From positions 62,001 through 126,000 of the forward strand of contig QPGO01000151.1 of NCBI GenBank assembly GCA_008632985.1: a stretch of 64,000 bases of DNA, given 5' to 3'. The notes below the pieces were generated by a model that did not search any database, was not told the DNA's origin, and was given only the letters and a program-made list of their open reading frames with translations. Shown here one piece after another: positions 11,651-64,000 of this stretch (positions are counted from its first letter, which is position 1; every line of letters begins with the position of its first letter). Made by a program: the position numbers and the translations under genes. The stretch is from Psammoneis japonica. Lineage: Eukaryota.

Positions 11651-11652
11651 TT

Positions 11653-11679: not shown

Positions 11680-11893
11680 CAGCAGGCAGGACCTTTTGAT
11701 CCTTGCAAGCGCGCTCGACTGTCTTCGATGCGACGCACCGTTGAACAGCGGTGACAACCGCAAGGCAGACGTCGTTTGTACAGCATGTGACTGTTCTACC
11801 AGGTTACCATAGTTCTGCTAGACGCTTACCGTGCAGTACCGTAACTAGAGATCCCAATGGGAGAAAATTGTGTAAATCATCACCACATGCTGG

Positions 11894-26400: not shown

Positions 26401-29400
26401 ACGAGATTCTCCAAAGTGCCGTTTTCAAAGGCTTTCTCCGCGTCTGTAGGCGCTTCAGGGTCATATCGGACAGGTTCCATCTTGGTTCGTTTTGGCCGCC
26501 CCCAACCACTTGAGCCAATTATTTCCCCAGACACGAAGGCGAACAATTGAATACCATGTTTCTCGGTTCCTGAAGAAGGACTTCGAGGGCGCCCCGTGGC
26601 TTCGCTCCTTTTTGTGCGACGTTTCGTGCGCCTATCAGCGCTTGACAACGGCGCCGTGTCTGTGACTGAATTGTTTCTTTCTGCGCTAACTCCGTGAATG
26701 GTGGTAGATTTCAGAATCGATAGAGAATCCAGCGCGGGATTTGATATCGCTGAGTTATGGGTTCGTCCCCGCCGCGGTCTTTCTCACGTCCTGAGGAGGA
26801 ACTGAAATGGGCAAAGGCTCCCCGGCTTCATTGTCACTCTTGCAGATCTTCGCACCATTTCCATCCACATATTTAACCGAAGCATGGCATTCAGGACATC
26901 TTGTCGCATCGTACGAGCACAATGCTGAACATCTAGGTGCGGGGCAGGTAAACCCATTGCCAACGAGATTCTCCGAAGTGCCGTTTTCAAAGGCTTTCTC
27001 CGCGTCTGTAGGCGCTTCAGGGTCATATCGGACAGGTTCCATCTTGGTTCGTTTTGGCCTCCCCTTAATACTTGAGCCACTTATTTCCCCAGACGCGAAG
27101 GCGAACAATTGAATACCATGTTTCTCGGTCCCTGAAGGACCTTGAGGCTGCTTGCGCTTATTGTGTTTTCGAGGTTTCGTCTTCATGACCTCGATCAAAT
27201 CGTTTTGAGCTTCGGGCGACTTATTTGCATTTATTGCGCCTTCTCGGGATGGTGTATTGCCTCTCTTGCTGATGCTGTCATCATCTCCCAGCGAGTGTTG
27301 GTCCAAGTCCAAAGAATTCGTAACGGCCTCTTTTGCGACTCTCTTTGCCTTTTTATCGCCGCTTTGTACTTCTCCTCGGCGTTTCCCGTCCTTTTATCGA
27401 TTAAGTTGTACTCTTTCAAACACCTCAATGCGGCCTCACGAGCAATCTTTACTTGCTCCTTCGTATCAAACATACTAATGTAAATTCTCTTCCCACTATG
27501 GTTGACGTTGCATCGCATTTTCTTTCTTGTCATCGTTGCTTCGCTCAAGTCAGATTTTTCTGATCTTTGCTTCGTGTCACCAGCTTTCTCGTCGACCAAT
27601 TGATGCTGTCTTTTTTAACTTCTAAGAGCGCATGTGGCGCCGCCCGTTTCCTACCCGATGCGGGTCGTGAGACTTTCGGAATGTGGATTTCTCCAGAAGA
27701 ATTTCCTATCCTTCTCTTCCTTGGACGAGAATCCACCGTCGCTGCGCATTGTGTAGCGCTAATTTCAATGCCTGACGCATTTGATTGACGTTGAGATTCC
27801 CGATGAGAAGCGCTCGCCTTGTCTGTAGCTTTGCGACTCCTTGTGCTATGACCCGGGGGTCCATTGTTACCCAACAGCCCTAAGTCAACAGGAGGATAAT
27901 CTCCTTTACAACTGACGCGAACGTCGTTCTCTTCGCTCGCATCGGAGGTGATGTTGCGTGGATAGCCGTGCTTTGAACCTTCGTCCTGTATTGCATGATT
28001 CGCACCTTCGTTACTCATATCTATTCCAGGGTCGTCTTCGTGATCGCTTTTCGTGTCGTCACCCCGTTCCTGCTCCATACTCTCATTGAAGCTGCCATCG
28101 TGTCCGTGCACACACGGGACGGCATCAAAAGCTGCTCTCTTCGCAGAAGCAACAGCCCTCTCCACGTTTAAGTCCGACATCTGCTCCTCGTCGCGAGGCA
28201 GATATGCTTTCAAAAATTCATTTGCTGCATTTAGAGCAAGCACGGCTTTCGCTTCCGAGTCATACATCCCTATTCGCCTTTCCCATTTGGAAAAGATCAA
28301 CACTGACACTTCCCACTTTGATTCCGAAAATTTTCTGATACCACTTTCCGCAAACTGCCTTGAACTGCCTTCACTACCCTTGTCAGTCACAGCAGGTATC
28401 TCTTGGCTTGACGCTTTACTCGAAACAGGGCCAGTAGTATTCGAACACTCGTCGTCGTCGCCGTAAGGCAACACGCTTGCTACTTGCGCCTTCTCTACAT
28501 TTACCACCCGAGGGATGGTAATAGCGTCCGAAGTATCATTTGCTGTACCCAACTCTGGAGAAACCTTGTTATGACAGGCCCGTGCAGTTGAAGTGACCAA
28601 GTAATCAGACCCACTTCTCATTGCCCTGGCCGTAGACGGAGGAAGCAATGTCCTTATCTTCTGAGAAACAATACAATCGTCAACAACATTCTGAATAGCA
28701 GCAGTCATCTCCTCATCAAAGACGTGTGGCATTGTGGACATTGTTTTCTCGGTCGTATCGACTGTCCACCCGTCGTAGCCTTTCGGAAGGAGTCTGGGAA
28801 TCGCAACGCCGGTCGAAGCCAGGTACATTGTAGTTCTTATCACCTTTGCCACGTGGTCGCCCCACGCCTCTGGATGATGATCTTGTAAAAGATGCCGCAC
28901 AAGTGGTTTCATGTCGATTTCTGTCTTGCTCACCCGAGAACGGCAGCTGACCGATGCTGACAAGATGTTTTCGTCTTTAGAATCGTCTGCTGAAGTCACA
29001 ACTTTGCTGCTTGCCAATTTCAGCATATTGCATAGTTCAGCACATCCCAGTATGAGCTGAACCAGGAAAAGCGGAGGTGAAAATAAGCAGTTTTCTTTGT
29101 GGCGCAACACGGCAACGGTCACTGCAGGCACTGGGAGGTTTGCAAGAACACCACCGTATCTTTGGTTCGGACTGTCATCGGTGTCGTATGGATCCTCCGT
29201 GAGTTTTGCAAGAACACCACCGTATCTTTGTTTCCTCGGCCTGGCCTCGGCGAAGTATTCTTGAAAATAAACTACCCAAACACATCTCTCAGTGTCGTAG
29301 ATGCAGGACCCACAATTGGTTTTAATGCTGAGTGGGCGGTCCAAGTAATCATCTGATGAAATGGGAGAGGACCTGTTGTCAGAATCCGTTGAGGCTGATA

Positions 29401-29461
29401 GACATGATTGGAGAGCTTTCACAGCTTCTTGATATTCCTTCGCTGCGATAGAGTGATGCAT
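23412..29461 (-). CDS. Very large (~2000 aa) putative nuclear protein: two AP2-like domains plus 4-5 Zn-ribbon/AT-hook-like repeats, interrupted by 3 frameshifts
   Basis: Consecutive ORFs 27545-29461, 27231-27599, 26755-27312 and 23412-26648. AP2-like segments KWEVSVLIFSKWERRIGMYDSEAKAV and KMRCNVNHSGKRIYISMFDTKEQV. Repeats GRGRPKRTK...FTCPAPRCSALCSYDATRCPECH. The true start may lie in an upstream exon (donor near 29697). Confidence 0.65.
24910..27140 (-). repeat. Four near-identical intragenic tandem repeats of ~550-565 bp
   Basis: cgcatcgtacgagcacaa recurs at ~25227, 25780, 26343 and 26905; the protein units are visibly near-identical. Confidence 0.92.
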
Positions 29462-30069
29462 AGCGTTCGTTGATAATCCGCTACCTGGAGTGTCTTGAAC
29501 AGTAAGAATGACGGAATTGTGGTGAGTGCACTGCTATGGAAATGCAACAGTTCGATAAGTCAAGCACGAGGCGGATCAGAATAAAACGCGTGTTTGTATA
29601 ACGTCACGGGCGCATTGCGAAACAATCAGAAGAGCGTGGTATAGTAGAGGCAACCAATCATTCGAAACTACAATCTACTCTACAATAAGAGACTCACTTT
29701 CTTCTTCCAGCGGCTTTCTCTGATGTTGCGCAGAAGATGGGCAATCGGAGCTGTCCTGACGAATCATCGTTGCTGCTCAGAGACAGCTCGATTTATTGTC
29801 CGACGAGCACGACAATAGAGCTTCACAATTCGTTGGTGTTGGGGATTGCTCTTATCGATGATGCATTTGGTGAGTCCTTACATACGCCGTCATTCGCTGC
29901 TTCATGTCCATTGCGTCTCTTTCTTCTGCAGCGTGTAGTGTGCGCGCGGAAAGGCGCATGTCTCGATATCTGATTTGGCGCGCCAAGTTCAGGGGGCAGT
30001 AGGAAAACAAATTTTTATTCATCAATAGATATCTTTGTTTTTTAAAAGAGTGTTCGCATCAAGATGTAT

Positions 30070-30900
30070 GCATGCATAAACTCTACTACAGTTATACGGT
30101 ACTGTACTGCTCTCTCTATTATACTCTCTCTACTCTCTTAGCTACTACCGTAGAGTAGAGAGAGTAGGTAGATGAGTAGCTACTCTCTACTACTAGGGCC
30201 CTAGCTCTAGCTACTAGTAGAGAGTAGAGTAGTAGTAGTAGTAGTGGCAGTAGTACAGCAGCAGCAGCAGCAGTAGAGAGCCAGCTGCCAGCTAGAGAGA
30301 GTAGCAGCTAGCTACTTCTAGAGAGTAGAGGGTACACTCTCTCTACACTCTATGTACTGTACTCTCTCTCTACACTGTAGCTAGCGGTAGAGAGAGAGTA
30401 GAGTAGCTTCTAAGAGTAGAGCTCTCTCTAGAGCGTAGAGAGCTCTCTAGTGGAGAGAGAGTTGAGGGCCCTACAGCAGGGACTCTCTAGAGTGGAGTAG
30501 AGTAGAGTAGAGTAGAGTAGAGTAGAGTAGAGTAGAGTAGAGGGCCTATCGAAGGCGAAAAGGATATCATGTACAGTAGGAGGCGTCGTCGTCAGAGTAC
30601 TGTACAAAACAAGCAACAGCAACTAGAGGGATGAGCATCCCTCTCTCTGGCTAGCAACTTTCTACAGCACCGGCAGACAGTAGCTAGCCCTCTACTATAG
30701 CCCACTCCTCGTGAACAAGTAGTGTCTACGGTACAGTGTCACCTGTGTGGAAATGGTTTCAGGGGTGCATCTTGCCGTCGCTAGTCGGTACGCCAGGCGC
30801 CATCCTGGGTCCACTTTCCAGCACTTGTAGAAAAACATACATTGTCACAGTGCTGCTACACTCTACTCTCTAGAGAGTACCTAGTTGTAGAGCGCAGTCT
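30070..30900. repeat. TAG/CTA-rich low-complexity tract including (AGTAG)n at ~30496-30542
   Basis: Dense tagag/ctag/ctac/agtag words; about 9 AGTAG units; short (AGT)n and (AGC)n runs. Confidence 0.85.
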
Positions 30901-31146: not shown

Positions 31147-34100
31147 CTACATGGCAGCCTCTTCCTTGGGCCCGTCAGCGTAAACACTGGTGTGGTCGCT
31201 GCCGCACGGTTGCTTTTCCTCCTGGACAGATGCATTGGCATCAGTGTCGTACGCTGGCAGGGCACCAGGGGGAACGACCATGATGCATTCCTCTTTGCGA
31301 TGTGCCAGAGGAGGCAACAAATCACGAGTGCACACGGACGATTCTTCTTGTAGAGTAGAAGAACGGACAGAATCAAAGCCAGCTTCTTCCTGGAGCACCG
31401 TGGCCCCTTCACGGGCGTTTGTACCATGCGATTGACCTGCAACATGGGCAATCAAAAGAACGAATGAGGAGCTGATGATCAGATGCCACGATGAGACAAA
31501 ATCGAAACAATCCAATTACCGGATCTTACCACTCTGTTCTAAAGCCGCTGTCTCGTTCTCATTTGTCGCGGCTGAGACTTTGTCAAAAGAATTTGAAGCA
31601 AAAGTCTCGTTCGCAGCTTCCGCTTTCTTCCTGGAAGCTGAAGAGTTGATGTTCTCGTCTCTCAAGCCTGGAGATTCGACCGTTCCTCTCCCGTTCCAAG
31701 ATCCGATCCATCCGAGCCGGGCCATTGTCTCCTCAGCAGGAAATTCGCCGACTTTAGCTTCCACCCTATCAAGCAATGCCTTTTCTTCCTCGACAGTTGT
31801 GAATCTATAATTCAACGTGAACCACTTGTGGCACCGGCAGGAGCATCCTGCACAGTAGCCACAACTGATGCAACAAGGGCCTTTCTTGCAGGGGCAGCGA
31901 GACTGACGATCTTTGTTAAAATGACCAGTGTGATTGGTGGTGCTGTGCTTCCTGTCATTCAACGGATGCATCTGATCAAACCTCTTGTACCTTTCCTCTG
32001 TGTGGCAATCAACGCAAATATTATAATCCTTGTGCAAGATCTTCTCGCACCCGTCGCAATGCATGTACACATTCGACAACTCCTTTTGGCACAGACGGCA
32101 AAAGAAATCGCCGTTTCCATATGGATCAAGTGCAAAAGCGTCAGGATTTTCCCACGAGTTGGGCTTCTTCGCAATAGAGACACGGTCTGATCTAGACCTT
32201 GGGTTAGCTTGAGCCATGGCAGTGCTCTCGGCCTCTACGTGTTTTCCCACGACATAGCGAAGCGACGGAAGGATCCCCTTCAGTATTGTACCAGGGGAAG
32301 GAAATGCATGCGTGTCTGATCGACTTGTGCTCTTGGAGAACTGCATCCAACTGCTCTCCGCGACTTCCAAGGCGGTGGACCATCGCTGTGCCATCTGCAG
32401 AATGGAATGCTCCGGAATAGCGAGCGTTTCCTTTGACAAGTTGTTGCGGTTCAAAGCTGCACATTCCAGCATCGACACGATTTCGCGGTTGATCCCTTCG
32501 CTGGACACCCCTCGATACATCCAGTCCCAGGCTACCGAGACGCAAATTTCTTCCTTGTACGCCCCACCAAGATCATAAAGAATCGCACCACGGAGCTTCG
32601 CGTGGCAGTCCTTCTCTGGGAGGGGCGACGGTGCCATCTTTCGAAAGGCGTGCAGCCTTCCCTTGTTGATATGGACAAGCTGTCCTGGTTTTAGAATGAA
32701 AACTGAAGGACAATACCTTTGCCATACGAGAAGCGGCAATGAGGACGCTAATGGTGAGAGAAGAAAGCAGGAGGGTTACAAAATGAAAACAAGTACGTAC
32801 CCCATTTCTCTGCACCTCTCTATCGAGTCACATTCTGGCCAAGTTGGTTTTGCTCCCTGGTCGGAGAAAGTTTAAGCAAGTGAGAATCGGCAGTAGCAAA
32901 CATACATTTTCGTGGCAATAATCAAATTCCGGACGTACCACGCCATCCCCGTGGGGCAGACCGTATAAAGCGTCATACTGTCCCGTGCCGTTCATTCCCG
33001 ACCCGCTGAGAAGGTACAGAGCATACTTTTTGTGTTTTTCTGGCAGACGCCGCAACATCACGACTTCATTGTACCCTGAGAGACATTGATGTCCGGAATC
33101 TACTGTGCCGTGTCCATCTTGGTGAAAATGAGTAAAGGATGCTGGAGGGGTTACGTAAAGGTTTGGACCCATGAATGGACGACCATTCTCATTGACCTGC
33201 GCAACCGCAAAAAGCAAGTAGCGCACACGTGAGAAGCCATTGGGCGCGTTAGGAAATAAGTCTGCAACTGACGTACGTACCGCGTTCATCATGCAGTCTT
33301 TTCCTCCAGGCAGAATGCCAGGAAGCTTAAACTTAGAAGCGAAGTTTTCGTATGCAGTCGGCAGCAACTTGATGATATCGAAATCGATCATGTACAAGAC
33401 GGTGTCAATCACGTCAATACGATTCTCCCTCTTTTCGCCGTCAAAAAAAGCAAAGTCCGTGTCAGCCGATGTCCTTTCATCACGTTTGTAAGTCAGTATA
33501 TCATGCTTGCCTAGAGCATCCTGGCGCGCATCCAAATACCGAACATAGTCCTCAATCTTCATCGAAACGCACTTGTCCACTTCCTCGTACTCAACGGAAC
33601 TGCAGTCTTCCTTTCGCTCAAACTTGCGGAACTTGTGGTAATATTGCCGCCCCGCAATATTTCCAAGATGCTGGGCGCTCCACAAATCAGGATTGAGATC
33701 ATCCGCAAGTCCTTCACTTATGACTGAGATGTCATCGCGTTCCATCATTGACAAGAGAAACGCCTCATCGTCCTTGCTCACAAATACAGCGCCGCTATGT
33801 TTATTTCGAAAATTGCCATGAAGAACGCGTGAGTCATCATGCCATGTCCATTCACAATGGCCAGTGCTTGGAAACTCCGGGAGATCTGGAGGTGGAGGTG
33901 GAGGCAGCGGTGGCAGAGCTCGCTGGTGGTCGGTGTGTTCGAGAGTCAATGTCGGATTATACAAACGCCACGCGATTTCTTCATTGTACGAATCACAGTT
34001 TTCCGGCGTAGGAAGACCAGCGGTAAAGTGACTAATGTCGAGCGTGCGGGGCTTCGCTGGACGCAACTGCTCTCCTACATTTGAATGTGTTCCATCTGCC

Positions 34101-35863
34101 AGACTGACGGAGTTTTTTGAGCTTCTTGACGTAGCACCATGATGCTCCCTGAGCAATTCTGAAGCTTTTCGGGCTTCTTTCGTACTCCTCCGCAAGCGGC
34201 GTCCGCCGTCTTTTGATTCCGGAAGGTCCGCAGCAAATAGCCTAGCCCGCTTCGTCCCAGCGCCATGAGCGTTCGAGTCTGAATCTCGGCGATTCCGTTT
34301 CTTGGTTATCTTCTCCTTAGATGTCTTGAATTTTTCTGGATTTGCTTGTCTGTATTCTTCAGCGGCAGCTAATCCAGCTGCTTTTGCTTCCCACACGAGG
34401 CTTTTGATCTCCTCCTCGGATTTACCATCGGAGTTCTTCATAAATAGCATAGCCGTGTCATACCCAATCTGCGCTTCCTCCCTTGTTCTGTAAAGGCCGA
34501 AATAGCGCGCCTTGTTGCCAAACTTGTGCTGTGTCCTGTACTTTTGATTTTGATCAACCCAAAGAATAGGTTTGAGACCAGCGGGTTTTCCCTTGGCTCT
34601 GACGGCAACTTGCCTTGGACGATCTTCCTTGGAACTAGAATCTTTCGGCGCCTTGACGGCAACCTTCGTTGGCCGATCTTCCTTGGAACTCGAATCTATC
34701 GGCGCATTGACGGTACCTTCCCTTGGACGATCTTCCTTGAAACTAGAATCTTTCGGCGCCTTGACGGCAACCTCCGTTGGCCGATCTTCCTTGGAACTCA
34801 AATCTTTCGGCGCCTTGACGGCAACGTCCCTTGGACGATCTTCCTTGGAACTCGAATCTATCGGCGCTTTGACGGCCACTTCCCTTGGACGATCTTCCTT
34901 GGAACTCGAATCTTTCGGTGCATTGGACTTGTCAACGGCTGCTCGAGCAGCTTCTTTTGCTTCCACGACGAGCTTTTGAATCTCCTTCTCCGGTTTACCG
35001 TCGGAGTTCTTCATGATTGCCATCGCGGTTTCAAGCGCAAGCTGCGCTTCGTCCAACGTGTTGTATTTGCCGAAATAACGCTCCTTCTTGCCGAAAACAT
35101 GTGCAGGTCTAAAGCGCTTGCCTCCATCAGCACGGTATATATGTTTGACCCTTTTTCCTTGGCGGTCAACCAGTGGACGAGCTTTTGAAGGACGATCTTC
35201 CTTGGAACTCGAATCTTTCAGCGCCTTGACGGCAACTTCCCTTGGCCGATCTTCCTTGGAACTCGAATCTTTCCGAGCCTTGACGGCAACTTCGGTTGGA
35301 CGATCTTCATTGGAACTCGAATCTTTCAGTGCATTGAGCTTGTCAACGTCTGCTCGAGCAGCTTCTTTTGCTTCCACGACGAGCCTTTGAATCTCCTGCT
35401 CCGATTTACCGTCGGAGTTCTTCATGATTTGCATGGCGGTTGCAAGCGCAAGCTGCGCTTCCTCCATCGTTTTGTATGTGCCGAAATAGCGCTTCTTCTT
35501 GCCAAAAACATATATAGGTTTATAGCGTTTGCCTCCATCAACAATGTATATATGTTTGACCCTTTTTCCTTGGCGCTCGGCCCGCGGACGTGCTTCGGAG
35601 GAACCCGACCCATCCTCCAGAGCGGCAACAGGCCTCGAAGACGCTCTTGATGAACGGCGAGGACGGCTAGATGTGACCTGCCCCTCCACGATGCTTTGCG
35701 GCTGGGGTAGATCAGGCATCCCGCTCGGCATTGTCGCCTCCGTTGGATTGCTAGCGATCCCTGAGATGCTGGGTGAGATCTCGACATGTTTCCCGTGAAA
35801 ATCACAATTATCGGTCATGTCAACATCAATTATGGAGGAACCTACTGCCGATTTGCCCGACAT
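31147..35863 (-). CDS. JmjC-domain protein (putative histone demethylase) with three N-terminal AP2-like domains and a C-terminal Cys-rich zinc finger; 5 exons
   Basis: AP2-like x3 (GKKKRYFGTYKTMEEAQLA). JmjC: GPNLYVTPPASFTHFHQDGHG...PGQLVHINKGRLHAFRK...SVAWDW, with an HxD...H triad. Zn finger CRLCQKELSNVYMHCDGC...CVDC. Introns near 33280-33198, 32938-32858, 32800-32710 and 31529-31438; last exon ends 31147. Confidence 0.85.
34600..35335 (-). repeat. 54-bp (18-aa) coding repeats KAPKDSSSKEDRPxEVAV and a duplicated AP2-like module
   Basis: gatcttccttggaactcgaatct recurs ~6 times at 34620-34915 and ~3 times at 35190-35330. Confidence 0.9.
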
Positions 35864-36320
35864 AATATCTTTTGATGACTATCCTTCGTTATGTAAGAAT
35901 TGGAAAAAGCGGAGCTTTGAGAGTCGGCTGTTGGAATCAATCTTATGCGGTGGCTGCAGATACCGGTACAGAACACGGAACCTTACGACTTCAAGCCGAC
36001 TGATGCTGGACTTGCCCAAACGCACCTTGAACCTGAAAGAATCACTTGACGTTGAGAACTTCAAATGGAACAGAAATGCTGTATGCCTGTATGCACTATC
36101 GTTCAGGCTGTTTCTCTGGTGCTTTGGGTTTCAATGGGAGTGAAGAAGACCGCAGACCGTGTTTCTTCAGATCGCATTGTGGTTTTGCTCCACGGTCGGT
36201 CGCAAGTCGCAAGTCGAAGACTACTTCTATATAAGCAAGTATTCAAATCTGTATAAAATGATTTTTTTAAAGAAGACGAGCCACCGGCAGACGGACCATG
36301 CTATCGTGATCTATCCTATC

Positions 36321-37115: not shown

Positions 37116-38516
37116 CTATTGACTAACGTTGTTCTCCACAAACACATTAAAGAGAGGAGGTTGCGGTATTTCTTTTCCCGTTGACAAGTCAACAATACAG
37201 CAACCCCGAACTTGCATTAGCCCAGCTGCAAGTGGGAGCAATCGAAAGCTCATGAGACAACTTCCACCAGACGGAGCAACTTCACCAAGGTTTCTAAAAC
37301 TGTTTCCGCACACGACAACACCGCTCATGTTGTTGAGCCTCATTTGTAATTGCAGATTCATACGACTACTAGAGTGATTCACAATAAGAAACTGCGCTTC
37401 TTGTGGTACTTCCAGTTGCATACGAGATGGAGGGTCCACGGGTTCAACCGTGACCGGAAGCACCTTGTCCAAAGCCGGAGCTGAACTCATTCCCTTTGTT
37501 AGCGCTGTTACCGACCGGTTTGCAGCCGCAGCCGCGACATCGACCGAGAGACCACTTCCGTGAACCACATATTTGCTTCCGGCGCCCATCATGAAGCGCG
37601 CCGTACTGGCTGGGCTTCCATCTGCATCCAGCAGCCCCGGCGGCTTTGTTTCGGGGCAAATGACGGGCGTGGAAGCAATTCGCCCCGTCTCGCCCATTGC
37701 CTTCCTCCATGTAAAGACCGCTTTCCCCAGCTCGTCACCACAAGCAATACCTCGTAGTGAAGCGTCTTGTGATGACGCCTTGACTAGAAACAAGTAGCGA
37801 AACGATGATCCGGGCTCGAGTCTGCCAGAGCTGTCAAACAACTCTGCTCCGCTCAGTCGTTCTAGCGTACTTCCCTTTTTTGTTGTAGTTGTTGGAGTCG
37901 TTCTACCAATACGTTCTGCAGTCAATCCATCTGGCGGTTGAAATTCCGCAGAACTTATACATAGTCCAATACCCGAAACATTCTCCACCGCAATCGACAC
38001 AAAGCAAGACGCATCTCCCGACCTCATGGTTAGCTCTCGAATGTTGAGTGGACTCGACACATTGAATCGATAAAACTTGCGCAGAGTTTTCGTTCCTCCA
38101 TCGGCTGCACCGTATCCAACCTCGACTCGCAAAATGTGCTGACCCGGCTCTTCCAGAGCTTGGCTGACAATGGCATCGACGCCTCCACCGGCCGGCACGT
38201 CGACTTGGCTTGTCTCTAGATTCGTCTTTAGGGCAAACTTGTGAGACGGCGTTTGGAGTTGTGCCGAGACTGTGAGACGAAGTACGGGAAGTGTTTTGGA
38301 AACATTCAGTGCTCCCAGGTATGCCGTGAAGGTTTCACCGACATTGATGAGCCCAAACGAGTCCGGTAGAGCTAGCGTTGAGTTGAAGAGAAATTGCGTG
38401 CTCAACGTGCCAGCGGCAGCAGCTTGGAGTTGTGAGCTTTGCAACCGCATCACCTTGAGCGTTGGAACAGCCGTTTCACCGGAACTTGCCGTCATGCTAC
38501 CGCCCTGTTTTGACAT
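37116..38516 (-). CDS. TRAPPC13: Trafficking protein particle complex subunit 13 (Trs65/DUF974 family)
   Basis: LKVMRL, LPDSFGLINVGETFTAYL and EPGQHILRVEVGY..LRKFYRFNV motifs; intact 466-aa ORF. Confidence 0.88.
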   Translation of the reverse strand: MSKQGGSMTASSGETAVPTLKVMRLQSSQLQAAAAGTLSTQFLFNSTLALPDSFGLINVGETFTAYLGALNVSKTLPVLRLTVSAQLQTPSHKFALKTNLETSQVDVPAGGGVDAIVSQALEEPGQHILRVEVGYGAADGGTKTLRKFYRFNVSSPLNIRELTMRSGDASCFVSIAVENVSGIGLCISSAEFQPPDGLTAERIGRTTPTTTTKKGSTLERLSGAELFDSSGRLEPGSSFRYLFLVKASSQDASLRGIACGDELGKAVFTWRKAMGETGRIASTPVICPETKPPGLLDADGSPASTARFMMGAGSKYVVHGSGLSVDVAAAAANRSVTALTKGMSSAPALDKVLPVTVEPVDPPSRMQLEVPQEAQFLIVNHSSSRMNLQLQMRLNNMSGVVVCGNSFRNLGEVAPSGGSCLMSFRLLPLAAGLMQVRGCCIVDLSTGKEIPQPPLFNVFVENNVSQ

Positions 38517-38961
38517 GATTCCTTAGTTGAGTTGAAGGCCTTGATTGTTGTTGCCAAACTTAAAACACACAAAAACAAAACTTTGCACCTTGCACCGACT
38601 GCCACATCGTTGCCGCTGTCCGCACTCTACTACCGGTAGAGGTGGCATCAATTATTGGGTTTGGTCATCCGTGCTGCAAGAAATTGGCGTTCGCGCGCGC
38701 GCACTATGTCAGTGGTCCATGTAGAATCCTACGGACCACGTACGAAATCAAATGACCAGTACGAAACCCACGTAGCCTCCACGATGGCTCGTCGCTCAAC
38801 GGACAAAGCACAAAGCACGGCCAAAAAGGCACGACCGACAGCACACCATCAAGAACCGACCGCTCGCGCCTCGCGCCGCAACAACTTTGCTTTGTCGCGG
38901 TCGGTGTGTTTGTCGACTAGGAGCGTCTCTACTTCTTGTTGACAAAAGCCTACTAGGTCTA

Positions 38962-40150: not shown

Positions 40151-41134
40151 TTCGCTCAAATGAGTATTTCTCATGAGTGTGGCCGAAGAGACGAAAGAGA
40201 GTTATTTTCAAATTGCGAAGTCTCTATTCATATAATGTTAGACCTTGCTTGATTGCGTGATTGTTTCTTCGAGCAATGTCTTATGACTTGTAGTCTAGGG
40301 ATTTCGGTGTGTGCACTCACTATTGAATTCTATCATCCCAAAGCCGTGGACATCAAAGCCAGAAAACGTGCTGTCTGGTCATGCGTGAGGCACAAAAAAT
40401 GAGCAAAGAAGCTAGCAGAAGACCCTCCTCCAGTGCCTTCCCTTCTCGATTAGAGAGCAGCTTTTTATGAGAAATTTGGAGATCGACCTGAAAAGTGCTT
40501 CTGCTCTTGCAGCTTTTCTGCCACATGGGCAGCATGCGAGATTGCTTGGAGGCTGCACTCTAGAAGTGGCATTCACACAAGCAACGCAAACACACATGTT
40601 CCATGCTTCAGGAAGCTCACCACTCACATTGGAGTGATTGACAATTGTGCCCATGTCAAGATCCCTTTCTTGCACAAAATCTGCTTCTTCCCTGACATTT
40701 TATTTAACTTGCCAAATTTCATCACAGCGTGCTTTTGACAGACTCACATTGTAAAACTGGCACCCATGTTGCTTTCCCCCTTTGCTTGTGTGCTTCTTCT
40801 TGAGCAAGTGAGTGACTTTGGAGCTCTTGCCAGGCACACTTCAGGTGCAAAAGTGGCAAGCACATGAAAGATGTCCCCAAAGGAAGAAGACGCTTGTGAC
40901 AGCACAGCCAGCGCCTGATCTCTTTTCCAGAGCTGTGCACTCTGTTTTGAGCTGGTTTGTTCTGACGCCTCAACAGTGCCAGCCAAGTTGCTGAAATGCA
41001 GAGCTCCAGGTTTGCTGGCCCCTCCAAGAACTGTGAATGACTGTGCTTGTCTCTGCAACCAGCCAATGCATTGTGCTTGAGTTGAGAGCTGCTTGGCTGT
41101 CTCACTTTGTGTGCACTCCTCCTTTGCAATCAGG

Positions 41135-41582
41135 TGCAATGTACAGCTCTACTAACAAGAGTTAATGTATCACGGCGACGTGTTACAGCCTTTAAATGTC
41201 ACAAAGGGCGTGACAAAATAACTTTTTGTCTGCATGCATACTGCATTATGAATTCATAGCGGAGTGGTTTATCGTATGACCATTAGGCAGGAGGCCAGGG
41301 GTTCGAAACCCGAGTGGGAGTTGTCTGCAGCAACGTTGATCACTGTCGAACGCGTAAAACTCTGTGCAGTTCTGTATGTTCCTTCGTACGTACCCACACT
41401 GTTCCGCCAAAACCGTGCAGTGTCAGCACACGTTAGTAAAGAGCCGCATGGACGCGTGATACATGGGGAGGAGTGCAATATACAGCTACTAATAAGAGTT
41501 AATGTATCACGGCGACGTGTTACAGCCTTTAAATGTCACAAAGGGCGTGACAAAATAACCTTTTGTCTGCATGCATGCTGCA
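41135..41582 (+). mobile_element. TRIM-like non-autonomous LTR retroelement (448 bp)
   Basis: Direct repeats at 41135-41245 and 41474-41582, each TG...CA with an imperfect terminal IR (TGCAATAT/ATACTGCA). PPT GGGGAGGAG directly before the 3' LTR. 4-bp TSD CAGG at 41131-41134 and 41583-41586. Confidence 0.85.
41257..41310 (+). promoter_or_regulatory. tRNA-type RNA polymerase III internal promoter (A and B boxes) inside the TRIM
   Basis: A box TAGCGGAGTGG (41257-41267) fits TRGCNNARYGG; B box GGTTCGAAACC (41300-41310) fits GGTTCGANNCC; spacing is tRNA-like. Confidence 0.7.
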
Positions 41583-44512
41583 CAGGAGCATTGATGGGAA
41601 CTTCCATTTGCCTTTTGATCACTGATTTTGATTTTGCCTCATCTCAAATCCAACAAAATAAAAAAAAATCCAAAAACAACAAAAACGTGAGATTCTGGCC
41701 AACACTCTGACAGCAACAATCATCACCATCAATTGCCCAACAGAAGTTGCCGCAGAAAGATGCAATGCCTTTGCATTTGCACCAATCATTTTCTTGCAAA
41801 CAACATCATCATCACACTTGTTGGCTCCAAATGACTTGGACTTCTTGCTCTGCAATGTGCCCTTTTGGTGTGGTGTCATCTTGCTCAAACAAACTGCCGC
41901 GGTGTGCTGCAGTTGTTGGCGATGTGGTGGCTGTCAATTTGCAAGTCTTGCAAGAAGCAGGCTTTTGGATGACATGTTCAATCTGCACCCCAGTGTCTTT
42001 GCAAAACCAGCACTGATTCATTTCTGCCTGCAACACACAAAACCAGCATGGTGGCCATGTTGTGACAATGTCCTTTGAATCTTTTAACTGGCGCCATTGA
42101 CAATCTTTTTGCTGCAAACACTGAGCTTCAGCAAGTGGCCTTGTGTCCTGTCAAAACAGCAGAAATGTGCACACCTGCCACAGTGGGTGACTGTGCCTGC
42201 TTTTGTTTGAGCCAAGAGCGCGCAACAACAAATGTGGTTGTGGCATGTTGCGTGGCAAGAAAAACATCTTGCAGCCCAACTGGCTGCATTTGCCCATGTG
42301 GACAGTTGCAAAAAGGCAAACACAACCCCAAACAAGGCAGCACCTGTTGTCCCTTCCCATTGCTTGATTGTGAGTTTCAAGTGGCTGCAGTCATTGGTGC
42401 ACTCACCAATGTGGCTCCCACACACCACTTGAACAAGAAGCCAAGGACTGCATCTTTGGACATGTTCACATGAGTGGTTGTTGATCAGCACAAGATGCTC
42501 AAAAGTGTCAGTGTGTTCTGTTGGATCTCCTTTGTGGCAAAGTTCTTTGCTGCCACCAGCTCTCCATGATGGAGATTGTCACCATGGGATGCTCTTGAAG
42601 ACTTTCATGCCACCAGCTCAGCTGGACCAGAGAAGGTCAGTCCAGTGCTGCTGCCCTCTCTCCAAGACCCAGTTTGCAGTTTGTTTGATCTCAAGCTGTC
42701 GTTGGAGCCAAGGCTTCCAATCAGGCAGAGCCCACCACAATTGCTCAATGCAACTTGAAGCACATGCTCTGCTGTGTTGGAATGCAGCTTGACAGCTTGT
42801 GCATCATTCTGCAATGGGCTCTTCTTGTGTGATGCAAGTGTGCGACTTGTTGGAGAGCAGAACCATCTCTAGAATGGAACCAAGATCCTGTGGCAGCATG
42901 CTTGAACATTGAACTGTGTTAGAAGGGTGCCAAGGACATTCCACTGGGTGACCAAAGTGTGCACAAATTTGTCAAAGATGGTGATTCTGCAATGATGCTG
43001 AAAGGATGCTGTGTCAGTCAAGATTGAACTCATGTGGGGTTTGGCAAATGTGAAGGCACCATTTTGCCAGCCAGAACCAACAGCACTCCTGATGATCCCT
43101 GTTTGGTGCAAGAGGACCAATGCATGGATTTCATGCTGCAAAGGGGTGCTGGAGGTCATGATGTGCATGGCGTGTCCATGGAGAACAAAAAGGCAGTGTT
43201 TGTGGTTGCTGTCATTTGGTTGTGCCAGTTGCTTGCCATCATTGATTTATTTTAGGAGGCCTTTCTTCAGCACAAGCCTCTCCTTCCTTTTGACCCAGCA
43301 GACAAAGCTGTCGCTCAAGAAATGGCAGAAATCATCAATGCCGGTGCACAGCTGCTTTGACAAATCATGCACCTCCACAAGCTTGAAGAATTGTTGGAAG
43401 GTGAAGTCCAGGTGATTGACCAGGCCAGGATCACAAATGTGAGATGGGTGCTGCCTCATCAGAAAAGGTCATCATTCAATGGCAGGCATTGTTGAAAAGG
43501 GCCGCATCTTCTTGGGACATTTGCTTTCACACTTGTTGAAACCACAATGGTGCCCAAACTGTGCAGTGCTTGTCTTTTTTGGGCCAATGTTGACAACGTG
43601 TGCCACATGTTGGTGCAAATCTCAACAGATTTTGTCTTGATCATGGTGCGTGTGCAGCTTCGGGCACCCCAAAAGACTTGATGACTCACCATCAAAGCTG
43701 CGCTTTTTTGATGTTTGACACGCACACGCATGCACGCATGCATGCATCTCACTGATTCCTGAAATGTCAGTTGTGCAGGTCAATGGCAATGGAAGCAGTG
43801 CCCCGCTGAAAGCACAGTGTTGCTGAGACAAAAAATCTGCAGAGAGAATTGTTCAGTGTGGCACTCCCAGCCAGGGCAGCACGTTGTTGGTTGGCGGCAC
43901 TCAGCATCATGTTGGCAGTGAGACATCTCTTGCCTGAGCTGCTCAATCTCTGTGTTTGCATCTTTGAGCTTTGCATGTGCATCATCAAGCTTTTCTTGTG
44001 GGCCTCTCTTGAGCTTCAGTGCAGACGTGACTCAATTTCCAGCAGTTTGGACAAAGGCGTTTGATCAAACCGAGACTTTTCTTTTGCCTCAACATCAGAG
44101 CATGTGCTTCGAAGGCCTCATGAACAATCTTCGGTGCAACAGCAGAGAGGGCAGCCAGGGATTGTGCACTAAAGTCGAGCAGAGGGCAGCATCATTCTTG
44201 AGACAAATGCACACAATTCAAGAATGATCAAGGGCAAAATTGTCGGGTCACCGTGTTCGTGCGTGCGTTTTTCACGCGAGAAAGGGAAGCACACGAGACT
44301 ACACATCATCGCAGCCGCGACTCTTCAATCTTGTATCGTGCCGCTTGCTGAAGCGAAGCTGTAACCTTACTTACCGGTACGTACAGTAAGTAGCCCATCA
44401 AGCCAAGATCTACGGTATCTATCTTATTACTCTGCATTTTTTCTTTCGACATCACTACTACTTTCTAAACTGTAACCCTTCAACAAAATTTAGTAGAAAG
44501 CAAGGGACCAGG

Positions 44513-49648: not shown

Positions 49649-51977
49649 AGTCCTAGGTGCTAAATCTTAAAGGATAGATCTGGCTGTGATGTTTGTCAAA
49701 GTTAAAGTCGCGTTTTTATGACATTGTTGCTTGCGAACCACATGGAGATATCGCTTCTTCCGCGATCCTTTCAGTCATGCCGAATCACGCACGAGGCATA
49801 AATCTCACTACTACTCTCTACAGTACAGTACATACTGTAGCTATGTAGGGAGAGGGCATTACGAATATTTATGCCCACTTGCATTCGATACGTCAGATGC
49901 TATTGCCATCGAGTGACCCTTTCTCGTCACTCACCGAAACCGAGCACCCACTCGACTGGCGTGAGTTCGCGCGGAGCCTTCGTTTGTTCCTCCTTGCTCT
50001 GCACTGCACTCTCTACATGGGGGCGGCTGCTGCCAGCAGAGAACGAGCAGAGAGAGCTGCCAGCTACAGAGAGTAGAGAGGACAGGTGCTGCTGTGCTGA
50101 CACTGCTGCTTTGGGTGCAGCAGAGACAACTTTGGGCAGAAAGTTTGTTCGCGCATCTTCACTTCTCACCAACCCATCATTGGTGTGGCAGCAGAGTGTG
50201 CAAGAGCTGCTCCACATTGACTTTGCAGCTGTGACCACACACAAAAGTTCTTCCTTGTTCTGTGTGTGCAACAGACCAAGAGTTCTGCCATTGTTGTGGA
50301 AAACATCATTCTGTTCCTTCTGGGTCTCTCATTGTCCTCTCCTGATGGGGTGCGGCAAACAAGCTCGACAACTTTTTGCTGCAGTTGCTGCCAGACAACG
50401 GCCGCTGTCGCACATCTTGTCGATGGCTTGCTTGCTTCCTCCTTTGAAATGAGAGCTGTGCAATGCCATTGACTTAAAATCCAAAGGAAGCAATGACAAG
50501 AGATCATTTTTTGTTTTCATGGAGAAGCTCCTGCAATCATGAGCTTGCTGCCCAGAGTCTCTTTCCTGACAGCATGACGACCGCCCTTGTTGAAAATCAA
50601 ACACCACAGAAGGATGCACAGTTGGTCAGACATGAGCCTTCCTCAAGTGTCCAAAAATTTGATGCCCGGTTGTCAGAGTCAGCTGGCTCAGCATGGCTTC
50701 TGTTGTTTGTCCAAGAGTCTTGATGCATCCAAAGACACCATGCTGAGCACAGCATGCACCTGTCTTCATCACCTGACAGACTTTCAGCCAGAGCACTTTT
50801 CACAATCTTGCTTTCAGTGTCACATTTCATTCTGAATGTTTCCATGCTGTCAGTGCTTGTCCAGGCAGCTCTTTGCTTTTGAGCAAAGCCAGAGTTTTGT
50901 GAACAAAGCATGGCGTTTCTGTTGGAATCATCATGTCATGTGGCTGCAATGTTGCAATCTTTGAGCCAAGACTCAAAAAACTGCAGTCCCATGTGTGTTG
51001 AGCATTGTTGACAAACAAAGTCAATGCAGCAATCAAGTGAGAAATGCAGTGCCAGAGTTTTGCTTTTGCGGAAGAACGTCAATGTCAATGATGGGCATAC
51101 CCCTTTTTGTCTTGAGTCATGCCAAGCAAGACAAATGCTCTGGCTTTGGCAGCACATCTTGGGAATGAGAGATTGGACAAAGTGCTTGCTTCATCCTTTT
51201 CTTCAGCTCCCTGAAACCATTGACAAATCTGGCTGTGCTTGGTCTTTCTTTGGCACGGCAAATGACGATGGAGCCACCCACTGGGATCAGCTGATGCATT
51301 TGAGAATGCCCGCATGTGCAAGGCACTCTGCTTCCTTGTGTGGCGCAGCTTCATGCCAACAAGGCACTTTGTGCAGACATCCATGGTGTGGCTCTGTGTC
51401 TTCTTTTAGCAGGATGTCGCAGGGTTCTTCTCCTTTCCACTGTCCCAGTGTCCCATTGCTGAGTGTCCTTGAGAGGCGTGCCAGCCTCAGAAGCAGTGCT
51501 CACTTCCTGACATTTCAGTGGAAGAAGGAGCACCACAGTCATTGGCTCATCTGCTGCCACACATTGTTGGCACCCACAGTTTTGTCAAATTCTTCCATTT
51601 GCATGCCAGGGAAAGGTGCCAATTTCTTGCCATGTGTTGTCAAAGATCTCTCTGGTCAGTGTGTCTGCAACTCTGCCTGTGTTCTGCCCACACAATTGCA
51701 GGGCTGACACCCTCCATGAAACAGAAAAATGCAAAGTGCTGCATTGGAAACAAGAAATGCAGGACAAACATCCAAACAAGTTTCCAGGAGGACCAACAAA
51801 GACAGCATCACACCATGCACCAAACCAGAGCAGCTTGTGGCAAATGTCAGCAGCCCATGGCACCCATGTCAGCAACACAAACAGCCTTGGTGAGCACATC
51901 TGTGGGGTTGACAATGCCTGCAACATGTTTTTGGCAACAATTGTCTGGGCCACCTGCTGGCTTTTAATTGCAAAGAA

Positions 51978-52121
51978 GTGTGTGTGTGTGTGTGTGCCTG
52001 TCATCAACACGTTTGAGTCCCAAAGGGACTTGGCAAGATTTTTGCCATGTCTTCTTCTTCTTCTTCTTCTTCTTCTTCTTCTTTTCTTCTTCTTCTTCTT
52101 CTTCTTCTTCTTCTTCTTCTT
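51978..52121. repeat. (GT)n and (CTT)n microsatellites
   Basis: gtgtgt run at ~51978-51997; cttctt run at ~52050-52121. Confidence 0.9.
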
Positions 52122-52282
52122 GTTGGTTGCCAGCTGTTTTTGTCAACAAAAAGCAGAGATTTGAGGAAACCCCAGTTTTGCCAGCAAAAGAGCTCATCTG
52201 CAGCACTTGTTTTGCTCACCAGTGACACAAGCATGTGGGAACCAAACACAGCTTCAGCACACCATGCAAATTGGGGGGGGGG

Positions 52283-52476
52283 NNNNNNNNNNNNNNNNNN
52301 NNNNNNNNNNNNNNNNNNNNNNNNNNNNNNNNNNNNNNNNNNNNNNNNNNNNNNNNNNNNNNNNNNNNNNNNNNNNNNNNNNNNNNNNNNNNNNNNNNNN
52401 NNNNNNNNNNNNNNNNNNNNNNNNNNNNNNNNNNNNNNNNNNNNNNNNNNNNNNNNNNNNNNNNNNNNNNNNNNNN
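52283..52476. other. Assembly gap (N run)
   Basis: Run of n bases following a G homopolymer. Confidence 0.99.
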
Positions 52477-54356
52477 AAATGCAGACAGCACTGCAACAGG
52501 GCACCCAGTGTGTCAAGTCTGCACCAGCTGGCACATGCAATGACAACATTCACCGAGTGCAGAGTGGAAAGAAAACTTGTGCAACTTTGTCTTCTCACAA
52601 TGCTCATTTGTTCCTTTGCTGGGCTGATGGACAATTGTGACTCTGAGGAACTTTTTGTGGCAACAGGAGCAGCCTTGGAATTGTTGTGGGGCTCAGCATG
52701 TGCAGCTTGCTTTTTGGGGTGTTCTGTTCAATGCAACTGCAGCAGCAAACAGCAATGGCCTCACTTGTTTGAAGTGCATTGACTCTGTTTGGCTTGGTCA
52801 ATGACCAAGGATTTTGAAATGAGGAGAGTCTTTGCTCTCAAGCTGGGAAAGTCTCATTGGCAATGGTCTTTGTGCACACATGCCAAAGCAAAGTTGTCAA
52901 CTTGGCAGAGGAACAGAGCCTTCTTGGTGAACTAAAAGTGCCAGAGCAGATGCATCTGTCTCATGAGCTGCGCTGAAAAAAAAAAAAGCAACTTCATGTC
53001 AGAGAGGAAGCTGCTGACCCAACAATGTTCCCACAGTGCTGCTCAAGACCCAAGTGTCCTTGAATTGCACAAGCTTTGTTGGCAAAACATGCGGGCAATT
53101 GACCTTCTTTCCAAAGTGTTTCTCTTGCACCATGAAGCATGTGCATCATTGACAGAGGAACACACTGGGGAGCCATCAGTGCAGATGTCACAAACGTTGC
53201 CAAACACAGGCAGCAAGAGCAAAGAACATTTGATGGGCTGATTGATCAGTGCAAGCAGAGTGAGCACAGACAAGTTTGCAGAGAGCTGGAGCCACACACT
53301 CAGAACCGTGATTGACAAAACTGAAAGTGCTTGCCCTTTTTTGTGCTCTTGCCCCAGTTGGACATTTTGCAAAGTTTGCTTTGTGTGAGAGCAAGATGAT
53401 CAAGGGTTCAAAAAGTCAACAAAACTCCATGCAAGCAGTGCACTGGTGAAAAAGCAACATTGAAACTCAAAATCTTGGAGTGCACAAGCCAACGCAACTC
53501 ACGCTCAGCACCATCTTTCACAGGTGCATTGGCATCATCAATTAAAACAATGTGTGCACTCTTGAGAACATCCCAAGTGTGGCCATGAGTGATGAGAACA
53601 TCCATCAAAGACAGGTTCCAATTTTTGCATCTGTGATGCAAATGCACCACTGAGCAGCTCACCCATGAGTCGAGTGAAAAACCATGTGTCCAAGCTGCAA
53701 AAGAGAATCCTCAACAGGGCACACAAGAGAGTGTGGCAGCAAAGGGAATCTCAGAGAGAAAGCAAACTTGTCCATGGCTGGCAATTTTCCATTGATTGAG
53801 GTGCGGTTGGTTCACATTTTTGGGTGCACTCTGCACAGATGGATGAAGTTCCCCCCAACTTTGTTGAGATTTGGTGGGGTCCCCAAGAGTGCAACATTTC
53901 AGAAACAGGGCAATTTTCAACCAGGAAACAAGCCCAAATGTGGCAGCCAACAGTGCTGAAAGAGCCAAAGCCATCAACCTTGCCTGTGACAACAGCACAG
54001 CATCTTAGTTCTTTTGGAAGAAAGAGCGTTCTTGATGTGGATGTGGTTGCAGAAAGTGCACAGCTGCCAGAATCAACAGGCAGCCCAGCTCCAATGTCCA
54101 ATGAGCATCTCAGTGGTGGGTTTTCTCAGTTTGCCAAGAGTGTGCCACCAGCCAGCCCTGCTTCACAGTCAAAAGACACAACAAGACATTGAGCTCCCAT
54201 TCGATGTTTGTCACCTTAACCCACACACCAAGAGCACACTCATCTGGACATTTTGGACAGTGCTTTTTCTTTGACAAAAGAGAGAGAGAGGTCACAAAGC
54301 CAGTCCAACAGGCTGCTTTGCACAGTGCATGGCACATTGCCATGAAAATGCTTTTG

Positions 54357-55232
54357 CAGCATGCCTCAGCACTGGACAACACGGCAAGACTGTGCACAGC
54401 CTCTTGCATGTGGCAACGCAGCATTGTCAGCATGCACCTGGGAAGCACAACCACAGGAGGGCGTGGCTCCATGTCTCAGGCAATCTAGAAGGATGCCAAG
54501 AGAGCACCCGTGTGAAGCACACTGACCTGTTGTCTGGCCCACAACAGTGGCGTGATTCCACACGATGATCACTTGTGCACAGCGCGCGATGGTGTGATTC
54601 GCATGATCCACAATGTGAATGCACGATCGATTGGCACAATCCAAAATGCAAATGAACAGCTGATTTGACAAGATTCCCCATTCACACAATTCCATTTCTC
54701 TGCACATGAACCAGCTCACAATTTTCACAATGACACAATTGAAACACATCTGCATTTTTGTAGATTTTGCAACCTGGCGCACTGTGCGGGAGTGACATTG
54801 CTGTGCCCCATGCATGCAATGGGCGACAAAAATGTGGATGTGTTTCAATTGTGTCATTGTGAAAATTGTGAGCCAGTTCATGTGCAGAGAAATGGAATCG
54901 TGCAAACAGGGGATCTTGTCAAATTGGCCATTTGTTCACATTTTGGATCGCACCAATCGATCGTGCATTCGCATTGTGGATCGTGCGAATCATGCCATCA
55001 CACGCTGTGCACAAGTGATGTCATCATGTGGAATCACGCCACTGTTGTGGGCCAGACAACAGGTCAGTGTGCTTCACATGGGTGCTCTCTTGGCATCCTT
55101 CTGGATTGCCCAAGACATGGAGCCACACCCTCCCACAGTCGTGCTTCCCAGGCACGTGCTGACAATGCTGCATTGCCATGTGCAAGAGGCCATGCACGGT
55201 CTTGCCGTGTTGTCCAGCACTGAAGCATGCTG
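54357..55232. mobile_element. Foldback / long-TIR element: ~405-bp inverted arms with a ~64-bp spacer
   Basis: 54357-54761 is the reverse complement of 54826-55232 (e.g. cagcactggacaacacggcaaga / tcttgccgtgttgtccagcactg). Mirrored ORF translations appear on opposite strands. Confidence 0.88.
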
Positions 55233-58200: not shown

Positions 58201-59299
58201 CTGCGTTTTATGCAATGCCTTGGCAATGCACACCAATCTGTCATTTTCTGTCTTTACATTCATTCATTGCATCTGAGTTCATTGACAGTGCTGCTGATGG
58301 TGTTGCCATGTTGCAGCATTGTCCATCGCTCCAATTCAGACACCAGTGCTGATGCTGCGTGGGAATTCTGAGGACACACACTGACAACAAATCACTCTTC
58401 ATTGTTCAGAAAAAACATTTGAAAACTGGTGCTGTGTTTGAGAGAGGCTTTGATTGTGGATGGGGGGGCAAAAAAGATGCAGCCAGCAGTTGGGCTTTGT
58501 TTTGGCATCAAAGCAAGTCATGTTGTTGTCTGTTGCATTGTCATTTGTCACTCAATGGATTTTTTGTAGTGCAAGCCAGACGGAATGGCATCAGACACGG
58601 CATTGTCTTCACCTTGACAAAACAAGCTGTTTTGTCAAGGTGCATTTCACCAAGCCATGCATGGACATGTGAGTGTGAGCACATTTGCCGTTTGCCATGG
58701 CCATCAACAAAGGCAGGTGCACAGCCTTGCATTTTTGAGCACTTTGATGAAAGCAAAAAGTTTGCCACTCAAAGTGGCAAGCTTGACAAAAGCTGGCCAG
58801 CAGAGAGGAGGTCATTCAGGGAATGCATGGAATGGAAAAAACTTGATGTTGTGACAACTCAAACATCAGCTGCAATTTGGCACAATGAGCTCCTTCAACT
58901 TCAACTTTTCCAAAATCAAAGGGTCAGTGCATGTGAAACTTTCGTTTGTTTTTTATGCACTCTCCCCTTTTGATTTTTGAAATGATCAGCATTGAAGGAC
59001 TTTGCTGTGCAGAATGCAATTTTTGGTCAGCATTGCACCACATGTGAAAAATGTTCTCTGCACACACTCTTTTTCAATTTTTGGAGCTTGTGTTTGTGGC
59101 CTGCTTCAACTTGCTCAACTGATGTTTGAACATGCCCTCTGTTTCTCCAGATGTCAGACAGCCAGTTTTTGCCAAGTGTGCTGTGAAATGATGTCCTCTT
59201 GCCTCTCATCTGTCTCATCCACCAGCCCTCTTTTTGCACTGTTCACTCAAATCTCCAGTGCACTGTGGCCAAGGAAGAGGAAGCATCTGCTGGAGCTGG

Positions 59300-60800: not shown

Positions 60801-61112
60801 CTGAGCTGAATGAACCATCAGCCTTTCTGCAACTTCCAAGATGTGCAACAGGAACAACGCTTGACTTCTTAATTCACATCATGTGACTGAGGACGAGCAT
60901 GAAGCCTTTCTTGATGCAATCCACCAGTGCAAGCCACTGCATCATTTGATGATGATGACAATGATGACAACAGCAAAAGTGATGAGCCAGAGGAAGAAAA
61001 CAATGATGATGAGGAAGACAGTGTGGGGGGAGGGGAGTGGGACAGCAAAAGTGATGAGCCCAAGGAACAAAATGGGGCAATTGGACAACAGACAAGCACC
61101 ACAATTGTCACT

Positions 61113-63990: not shown

Positions 63991-64000
63991 CGCCAGTTCC

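Follow-up and report, generated by a model that had tools for sequence, protein, structure and literature searches.

A young, still polymorphic TRIM-like retrotransposon in a diatom genome and the probable targeted loss of TpA dinucleotides

Introduction

The two LTRs of a retrotransposon are identical at insertion, and the differences found between them later have arisen since. In a window of 64,000 nt of Psammoneis japonica DNA (assembly GCA_008632985.1, contig QPGO01000151.1, positions 62,001 to 126,000; "the window" is this whole stretch, and positions below are counted from its first letter), two short direct repeats within 41135-41582 differ mainly at TA dinucleotides. The locus thus raises the question whether a process that removes TA has been caught at work. 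A first-pass annotation had answered yes: it held that three of four substitutions between the repeats remove a TA, each on the side facing the flank, that the CpGs of the repeats are intact, and that TA loss looks ongoing, post-insertional and possibly faster than CpG loss. Here we analyze the element, its sister copies and the DNA in which it lies.

Results

The element is a miniature LTR retrotransposon whose insertion is still polymorphic

The host of the window is a diatom and the DNA is nuclear. An uninterrupted ORF of 468 aa on the minus strand (37116-38522) encodes TRAPPC13 according to Pfam; in protein comparison its best relatives reach up to 67% identity, and among the 120 matches listed the named ones are all diatoms (Thalassiosira, Skeletonema, Cyclotella, Seminavis, Attheya and Bacillariaceae). 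Pfam cut-offs were passed by 4 of 13 long ORFs, and PAP-fibrillin, LRR and ZZ families are also present. The window further contains a 1123-aa intronless ORF without a Pfam family (23412-27393, minus strand), which carries internal tandem repeats of ~550 bp that are ~92% identical (24915-27137), and other ORFs of 400-1000 aa without a Pfam family at 27545-29533, 32828-35878 and 31516-32775.

Exploring the sequence around 41135, we found an element of 448 bp on the plus strand that has two terminal repeats, a short non-coding interior, TG..CA ends, a short target-site duplication and a polypurine tract, i.e. the features of a miniature LTR retrotransposon. Its 5' LTR (41135-41245, 111 nt) and 3' LTR (41474-41582, 109 nt) are direct repeats, 96% identical and spaced 337-339 nt from start to start. 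Between them lies an internal region of 228 nt (41246-41473), in which the polypurine tract GGGGAGGAG (41465-41473), read directly, adjoins the 3' LTR. The duplication CAGG, also read directly, flanks the element at 41131-41134 and 41583-41586. Regarding the coding capacity of the interior, the ORF at 41252-41707 had no Pfam match. No TGG start lies within ~20 nt of the 5' LTR end, and ARAGORN finds no tRNA in the window. At the junction of 5' LTR and interior (41246-41265), where a primer-binding site is expected, there is a 12-nt perfect palindrome centred on GAATTC.

The interior carries a tRNA-type A-box and B-box pair resembling a pol III promoter (41257-41310, 32 nt apart), recognised by the consensus motifs of the two boxes. 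This pair is the sole match in the window, and 300 simulated 64-kb sequences yielded none. A search of the element for tRNAs with ARAGORN gave no hit, relaxed ARAGORN gave only a poor fold at the 70% threshold, and an Rfam search with E up to 1 gave no tRNA or ribozyme match. We therefore rejected a tRNA gene or tRNA-derived SINE, as the A and B box motifs come with no cloverleaf by either program.

The element is mobile, as contigs of the same sample reveal both many copies at different sites and an insertion polymorphism. A 323-nt contig of a public run from this sample (depth 54) represents the empty site: it joins 41130 to 41583, skipping 452 bases, that is 448 plus 4, and the four letters of the duplication fit either side of the joint. 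The insertion is therefore polymorphic and the 4-bp duplication is proven. The read evidence here and below consists of contigs of one sample only, which is probably the source of the window assembly. Filled and empty haplotypes differ by 1.2-1.9% in their flanks. Between the empty-site haplotype and the window we counted nine differences in ~580 nt of flank (40835-41130 and 41587-41882), all nine of them transitions, including two CpG losses and one CpG gain relative to the window.

Sister copies were represented by 1105 contig pieces that match the element at 80% likeness or more. Summed depth on the element ranges from 1e4 to 1.9e5 (1.1e4-1.1e5 in the internal region) as against 54-62 in the flanks, where depth is not to be equated with copy number; the interior equals the LTRs in abundance within the run. 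Fifteen contigs break off at 41473/41474 and four at 41582, with flanks that differ among them, and the LTR ends are therefore the boundaries of the family. Within the window itself, blastn detected no second copy, and a scan in a purine/pyrimidine alphabet, which is blind to transitions, detected no further copy (shuffled maximum 28). In public metagenome contigs, neither of two element patterns had a match.

Together, the data identify this locus as a young and still polymorphic member of a very abundant family of non-autonomous, TRIM-like LTR retrotransposons, with a length of 448 bp. Plant TRIM and Cassandra retrotransposons, the latter with a pol III 5S promoter, share with it the size class, LTRs of ~110 nt, a short non-coding interior, the polypurine tract, the duplication and the copy number, and in Cassandra a pol III-type promoter motif likewise lies inside the element. 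Unlike plant TRIMs, whose target duplication is 5 bp, the present element has a duplication of 4 bp, no recognised primer-binding site and a diatom host, and unlike Cassandra it carries its pol III-like motifs, which are of tRNA type, in the interior rather than in the LTR.

Three of four substitutions between the LTRs touch a TA

The two LTRs differ by four substitutions, all of which are transitions, and by a 2-bp CT indel at ~41147, base for base as the first-pass annotation had listed them. At site 1 the 5' LTR reads G at 41141 (TG) where the 3' LTR reads A at 41480 (TA), and at site 2 it reads C at 41156 (CA) where the 3' LTR reads T at 41493 (TA). At site 3 the 5' LTR has the TA (A at 41240) and the 3' LTR the TG (G at 41577). 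The remaining difference, T at 41223 versus C at 41560, is outside TA or CG context. All four CpGs of the LTR are kept in both repeats, in agreement with what had been claimed. The overall divergence of 3.7% falls to 0.9% when TA sites are left out.

Considered alone, the LTR pair is non-significant evidence for TA loss: of all transitions that so TA-rich an LTR could undergo, 37% alter the TA count, and at least three such changes among four have P=0.15 when unpolarised, which bears out the earlier caution that the numbers are small. With all three differences read as losses, and 18% of LTR sites lying in a TA, P becomes 0.02. One explanation is chance, namely that four ordinary neutral transitions occurred, three of them touching TA, and that a TA process may exist but has yet to reach this copy. 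The TA-richness of the LTR speaks for chance, and so do the flank haplotypes, which also differ by transitions alone, so that transitions are common here. However, 3 of the 22 TA dinucleotides in the LTR have changed as against one other change in ~109 aligned sites, and the LTRs stand 3.7% apart as against 1.2-1.9% between flank haplotypes although the insertion is still polymorphic. Given also that two of the three TA-type sites were polarised as losses (see below), we consider chance quite unlikely. The numbers fit a TA change rate an order of magnitude above background, with a very wide error. The claim that TA loss is ongoing and post-insertional is supported by the empty-site contig, because the insertion is still polymorphic.

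Measured from the outer ends of the element, the three TA-type differences are found at distances of 5, 21 and ~6 nt. All three fall among the 6 of 22 LTR TAs that are nearest to these ends (20/1540 = 0.013), a post hoc figure that leans on site 3. An edge effect toward the flanks, as described earlier, is unproven.

Sister copies polarise the changes as losses of TA

The sister contigs vary at 55 places. A>G (20) and T>C (24) together account for 44/55, and the remainder are C>T (8), T>A (2) and G>A (1). Contig depths sum over collapsed repeats and do not count independent copies, and copies that are related have changes in common through descent. Forty of the 55 places were listed individually, 31 of them inside the element, and among these 31 there are 18 T>C and 11 A>G (29/31). 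In 27 of the 31 the change is a TA-site loss, in which a TA of the window copy shows T>C at its first base or A>G at its second; with TA positions making up 62/448, the binomial P is 1e-19. Four places do not follow this pattern, namely 41223 T>C, 41246 T>C, 41272 T>A and 41447 C>T. The change at 41447 would generate a TA, and the window copy may itself have lost one there. The 3' neighbor of the struck adenine leans weakly to pyrimidines, in listed rows that come from related copies.

Six TA sites (41275/6, 41387/8, 41490/1, 41493/4, 41500/1 and 41505/6) carry both T>C and A>G among the copies. TA is the ancestral state at these six, because only TA joins CA and TG by single steps, and elsewhere it is predicted by parsimony. 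CG as an alternative ancestor of CA and TG is implausible because the 24 CpGs of the window copy hardly vary across the family. At most family TA sites the majority of depth reads CA or TG, and a majority-rule consensus would therefore mislead on the ancestor. The possibility that TG or CA is ancestral and TA derived thus has the majority reading in its favor at most sites, whereas the sites with two derivatives yield TA. The TA-loss process has already struck most TA sites in most sister copies.

Polarising the LTR differences with the family resolved two of the three TA-type sites as TA losses. At site 1 most of the family (80% of depth) has C at 41479 and keeps the A, and therefore G41141 of the 5' LTR is derived (TA>TG). 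At site 2, C at 41493 accounts for 57% of family depth and G at 41494 for 46%; as both CA and TG occur, the ancestor is TA and the 5' LTR has acquired C41156 (TA>CA). The family is ambiguous at site 3, where 51% of its depth reads G at 41240 and no CA variant is among the places listed, so that a TA>TG loss, which would make G41577 of the 3' LTR the derived base, is probable from the general spectrum alone. At the non-TA difference 17 of 17 contigs read C, and therefore T41223 of the 5' LTR is derived (C>T). The statement that three of four substitutions remove TA thus holds at sites 1 and 2, with site 3 left ambiguous. The 3' LTR is near the family form. We consider it likely that the three TA-type differences are the work of the TA-loss process.

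The start of the 5' LTR is almost unmatched in the run (depth 24.8 in the bin 41115-41149, versus 48125 at the matching start of the 3' LTR), which makes three changes private to this copy: G41141, the CT insertion and C41156. This bears on ectopic gene conversion, in which the LTR ends would have received CA/TG variants and the CT indel from older, mutated copies. The clustering of the three private changes within 16 nt would suit such an event, as would a very abundant family in which most copies have CA or TG at these sites. Yet the near absence of the 5' LTR form from the run means that no abundant donor is seen, and the family varies to CA at site 1, where the 5' LTR carries TG, which makes gene conversion very unlikely.

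TA and CG are purged from the non-genic DNA around the element while genes are spared

The element is a sharp island of TA and CG (31 TA and 24 CG in 448 bp) within non-genic DNA, which we call the sea, that has lost most of both. TA is absent for ~390 bp to its left, and the right flank (41587-44250) contains 7 TA in ~2600 bp. These sea flanks are single-copy in read-contig depth (54-150 in the left flank, 40501-41130). The sea comprises 29.3 kb (1-7750, 9501-11750, 15251-17250, 40501-44250 minus the element, and 50001-64000) and has only 77 TA (O/E 0.039) and 309 CG (O/E 0.183), with TG and CA each at ~1.85. In the gene blocks (34.3 kb) O/E is 0.60 for TA and 0.99 for CG. The summed share of TA, CG, TG and CA is 0.243 in the sea versus 0.236 in the rest of the window, which fits a conversion of TA and CG into TG and CA; G+C is 48.2% versus 48.9%. 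An assembly gap of 194 N lies inside the sea (52283-52476).

Long open frames fill the sea (1-8000 and 50000-64000) because the stops TAA and TAG have been lost. None of the 96 sea ORFs of at least 110 aa in the ~29 kb scored above the Pfam cut-off, with three weak, chance-level matches only. The idea that the sea consists of decayed transposons was not borne out, as the 96 ORFs contain no transposon or viral protein remnant recognisable by Pfam.

TA loss is confined to particular regions, with a TA O/E of 0.04 in the sea versus 0.6 in genes. At the codon 3-1 junctions of 10 long ORFs the values are 0.59 for TA and 0.99 for CG; since these junctions are normal, the process passes genes by, and selection is not the sole reason for their intact TA. 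Between two minus-strand ORFs there is a TA-rich spacer of low complexity (~30050-30700, TA O/E 1.5) with TAGAG/CTCTA-like runs, and short intergenic DNA in gene blocks thus escapes the TA purge. The CpG depletion of the sea suggests that it may be methylated, silent chromatin.

TA is lost faster than CpG

The claim that TA loss is faster than CpG loss drew support from two sides. In the family, at least 27 of 62 TA positions were hit versus at most 2 of 48 CpG positions, the latter as C>T places (Fisher P=2e-6). The second and independent source, which served as a control inside the window for direction as well as rate, is a degenerate palindrome of 876 bp in the sea (54357-55232), whose arms of ~430 nt are 86.6% identical and which may be a hairpin element or an inverted duplication. 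Its arms differ by 57 mismatches, 52 of which are transitions. We counted 17 aligned CA/TG pairs between the arms, versus 1.6 expected and a maximum of 7 in 2000 permutations, and such double transitions dominate what separates the arms. Both arms retain CG at 6 sites and only one of them does so at 13; TA is retained by both arms at none and by one arm at a single site. A simple two-copy model gives a loss per arm of ~0.98 for TA and ~0.52 for CpG, a rate ratio of ~5.5. Three other duplicates in the sea have 6, 1 and 3 CA/TG pairs versus 0.7, 0.2 and 0.3 expected, and three repeats inside genes have 2, 0 and 0. Strand coordination in the palindrome, at 12 CA versus 5 TG in one arm, was not significant.

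The palindrome also bears on two other accounts of the missing TA, namely an artefact of sequencing or assembly, and selection against TA rather than mutation. That the read evidence comes from one sample only would leave room for these. However, the sea reappears in independent contigs of the run, the genes of this assembly are normal, and each TA site has been fixed as CA or TG, with different outcomes in the two arms of the palindrome; selection maintaining an O/E of 0.04 across 29 kb of non-coding DNA is implausible. We regard artefact or selection as extremely improbable.

Discussion

A directional, post-insertional process of TA loss very probably exists in this genome. Our reading of the locus, which we think likely, is that a young TRIM-like copy has met a region-targeted process that turns TpA into TpG or CpA several times faster than CpG decays and that spares genes. 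The element would have inserted, with its 4-bp duplication, into non-genic DNA purged of TA and CG; there a region-targeted process at the level of DNA would convert A:T to G:C in TpA on either strand, and the three TA-type LTR differences would be its first hits on the young copy.

TA loss is transition-only, TA-specific and two-stranded, and the retroelement family is struck by it. On the sense strand T>C is at least as frequent as A>G, which shows that the process acts on DNA and not on sense RNA. This point weighs against editing before integration, in which ADAR-like RNA editing or reverse transcriptase errors would produce hyperedited copies that then integrate. A preference of ADAR-type enzymes for a 5' U, which is cited in bioRxiv 10.64898/2026.01.13.699255, would be in keeping with such editing, but it predicts A>G on the sense strand only, it would leave both LTRs alike, and it cannot purge the single-copy, non-TE sea or the palindrome arms. 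We consider it barely credible.

As to the agent of this DNA-level process, a DNA adenine deaminase is possible, at somewhat less than an even chance and by analogy. In such a scheme the adenine after T would be deaminated to inosine and read as G by an ADAT2/TadA-like enzyme with a 5'-T preference, as in the analogy of Bigelowiella, and targeting may follow silent or methylated chromatin. The process may also creep from the purged flanks into the insertion, although we find this doubtful.

Because TA is strand-symmetric, a deaminated A is indistinguishable in the sequence from a modified T. The T in TpA might be oxidised or otherwise modified by a TET/JBP-type enzyme, to 5-hydroxymethyluracil or a base-J-like product, and then mispair with G to give T>C; the sequence outcome would be identical to that of adenine deamination. 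In dinoflagellates, according to older literature, hydroxymethyluracil prefers TpA, which favors this route, and T>C rows slightly exceed A>G rows (18 versus 11 among the listed element places). On the other hand, we know of no thymine modification of this kind in diatoms. Modified thymine appears unlikely.

Targeted mutation of TA to TG or CA is a rare kind of process, reported so far in one other alga; our search of the literature on TpA depletion or TpA hypermutation in diatoms found none. In the chlorarachniophyte Bigelowiella natans, Mettrop et al. describe a TpA-specific hypermutation of integrated viral DNA (bioRxiv 10.64898/2026.01.13.699255). Across 15 mutation-accumulation lines, two integrated viral regions gained 231 mutations, of which A>G and T>C made up 230; these A>G/T>C changes were all on TpA, at ~6e-7 per site per generation; adenine deamination was proposed, with an ADAT2-like candidate named; and low-TpA genes were enriched for RT and DDE domains. 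The diatom case resembles it in that A>G and T>C at TpA make up nearly all changes, the product being TpG or CpA depending on the strand, and in that the changes are confined to certain regions, with other regions normal and TpA depletion accompanied by a gain of CpA and TpG. The two differ in host, a stramenopile diatom as opposed to a rhizarian. The purge is far deeper here (TA O/E 0.04 over 29 of 64 kb versus a Rho of 0.45 in the NCLDV region of B. natans), and its targets are a retroelement family and non-genic DNA in which no viral or TE remnant could be recognised; TA loss here coincides with CpG depletion. The B. natans process was measured in mutation-accumulation lines, whereas that of the diatom is deduced from copies and duplicates.

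Repeat-induced point mutation (RIP) of fungi, in which C>T mostly at CpA creates TpA, requires duplicated DNA. Like RIP of ascomycetes, the diatom process is dinucleotide-specific, transition-only and two-stranded, and the damage it does to repeated or invading DNA remains visible in base composition. Unlike RIP it runs in the opposite direction, as TA is lost where RIP creates it, and the sea flanks are single-copy in depth. Fungal RIP was rejected on these grounds, the direction being opposite in both family and palindrome. With CpG decay by methylation and deamination the sea shares its CG O/E of 0.18, its excess of TG and CA and the 13 palindrome sites at which CG persists in one arm, and CpG decay probably also runs in this compartment. 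It differs from CpG decay in that TA is removed, and in that CpGs of the family are nearly untouched while its TA sites are mostly struck.

Taken to its furthest, this reading would have a diatom genome-defence editor deaminate the adenine of TpA in silenced double-stranded DNA, erase ~96% of TpA, outrun CpG decay and creep into insertions. Since the signature recurs in a rhizarian alga, the system would be old, SAR-wide and RIP-like with opposite polarity. As a whole we find this somewhat improbable.

If the reading is right, several consequences follow. LTR-divergence clocks overestimate insertion age in such genomes, as illustrated by 3.7% in a still polymorphic insertion. The majority-rule consensus of a TE family is mis-polarised at TA sites. 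Purged DNA without TAA and TAG is a trap for gene finders, with 96 spurious ORFs of at least 110 aa in 29 kb. The young element family provides a ready assay, given that new insertions are TA-rich and old ones TA-free. If true, TpA-targeted A:T>G:C hypermutation would not be limited to one chlorarachniophyte and would shape about half of the diatom DNA sampled; it would constitute a second, mirror-image counterpart of fungal RIP and point to a natural DNA adenine editor with TA specificity.
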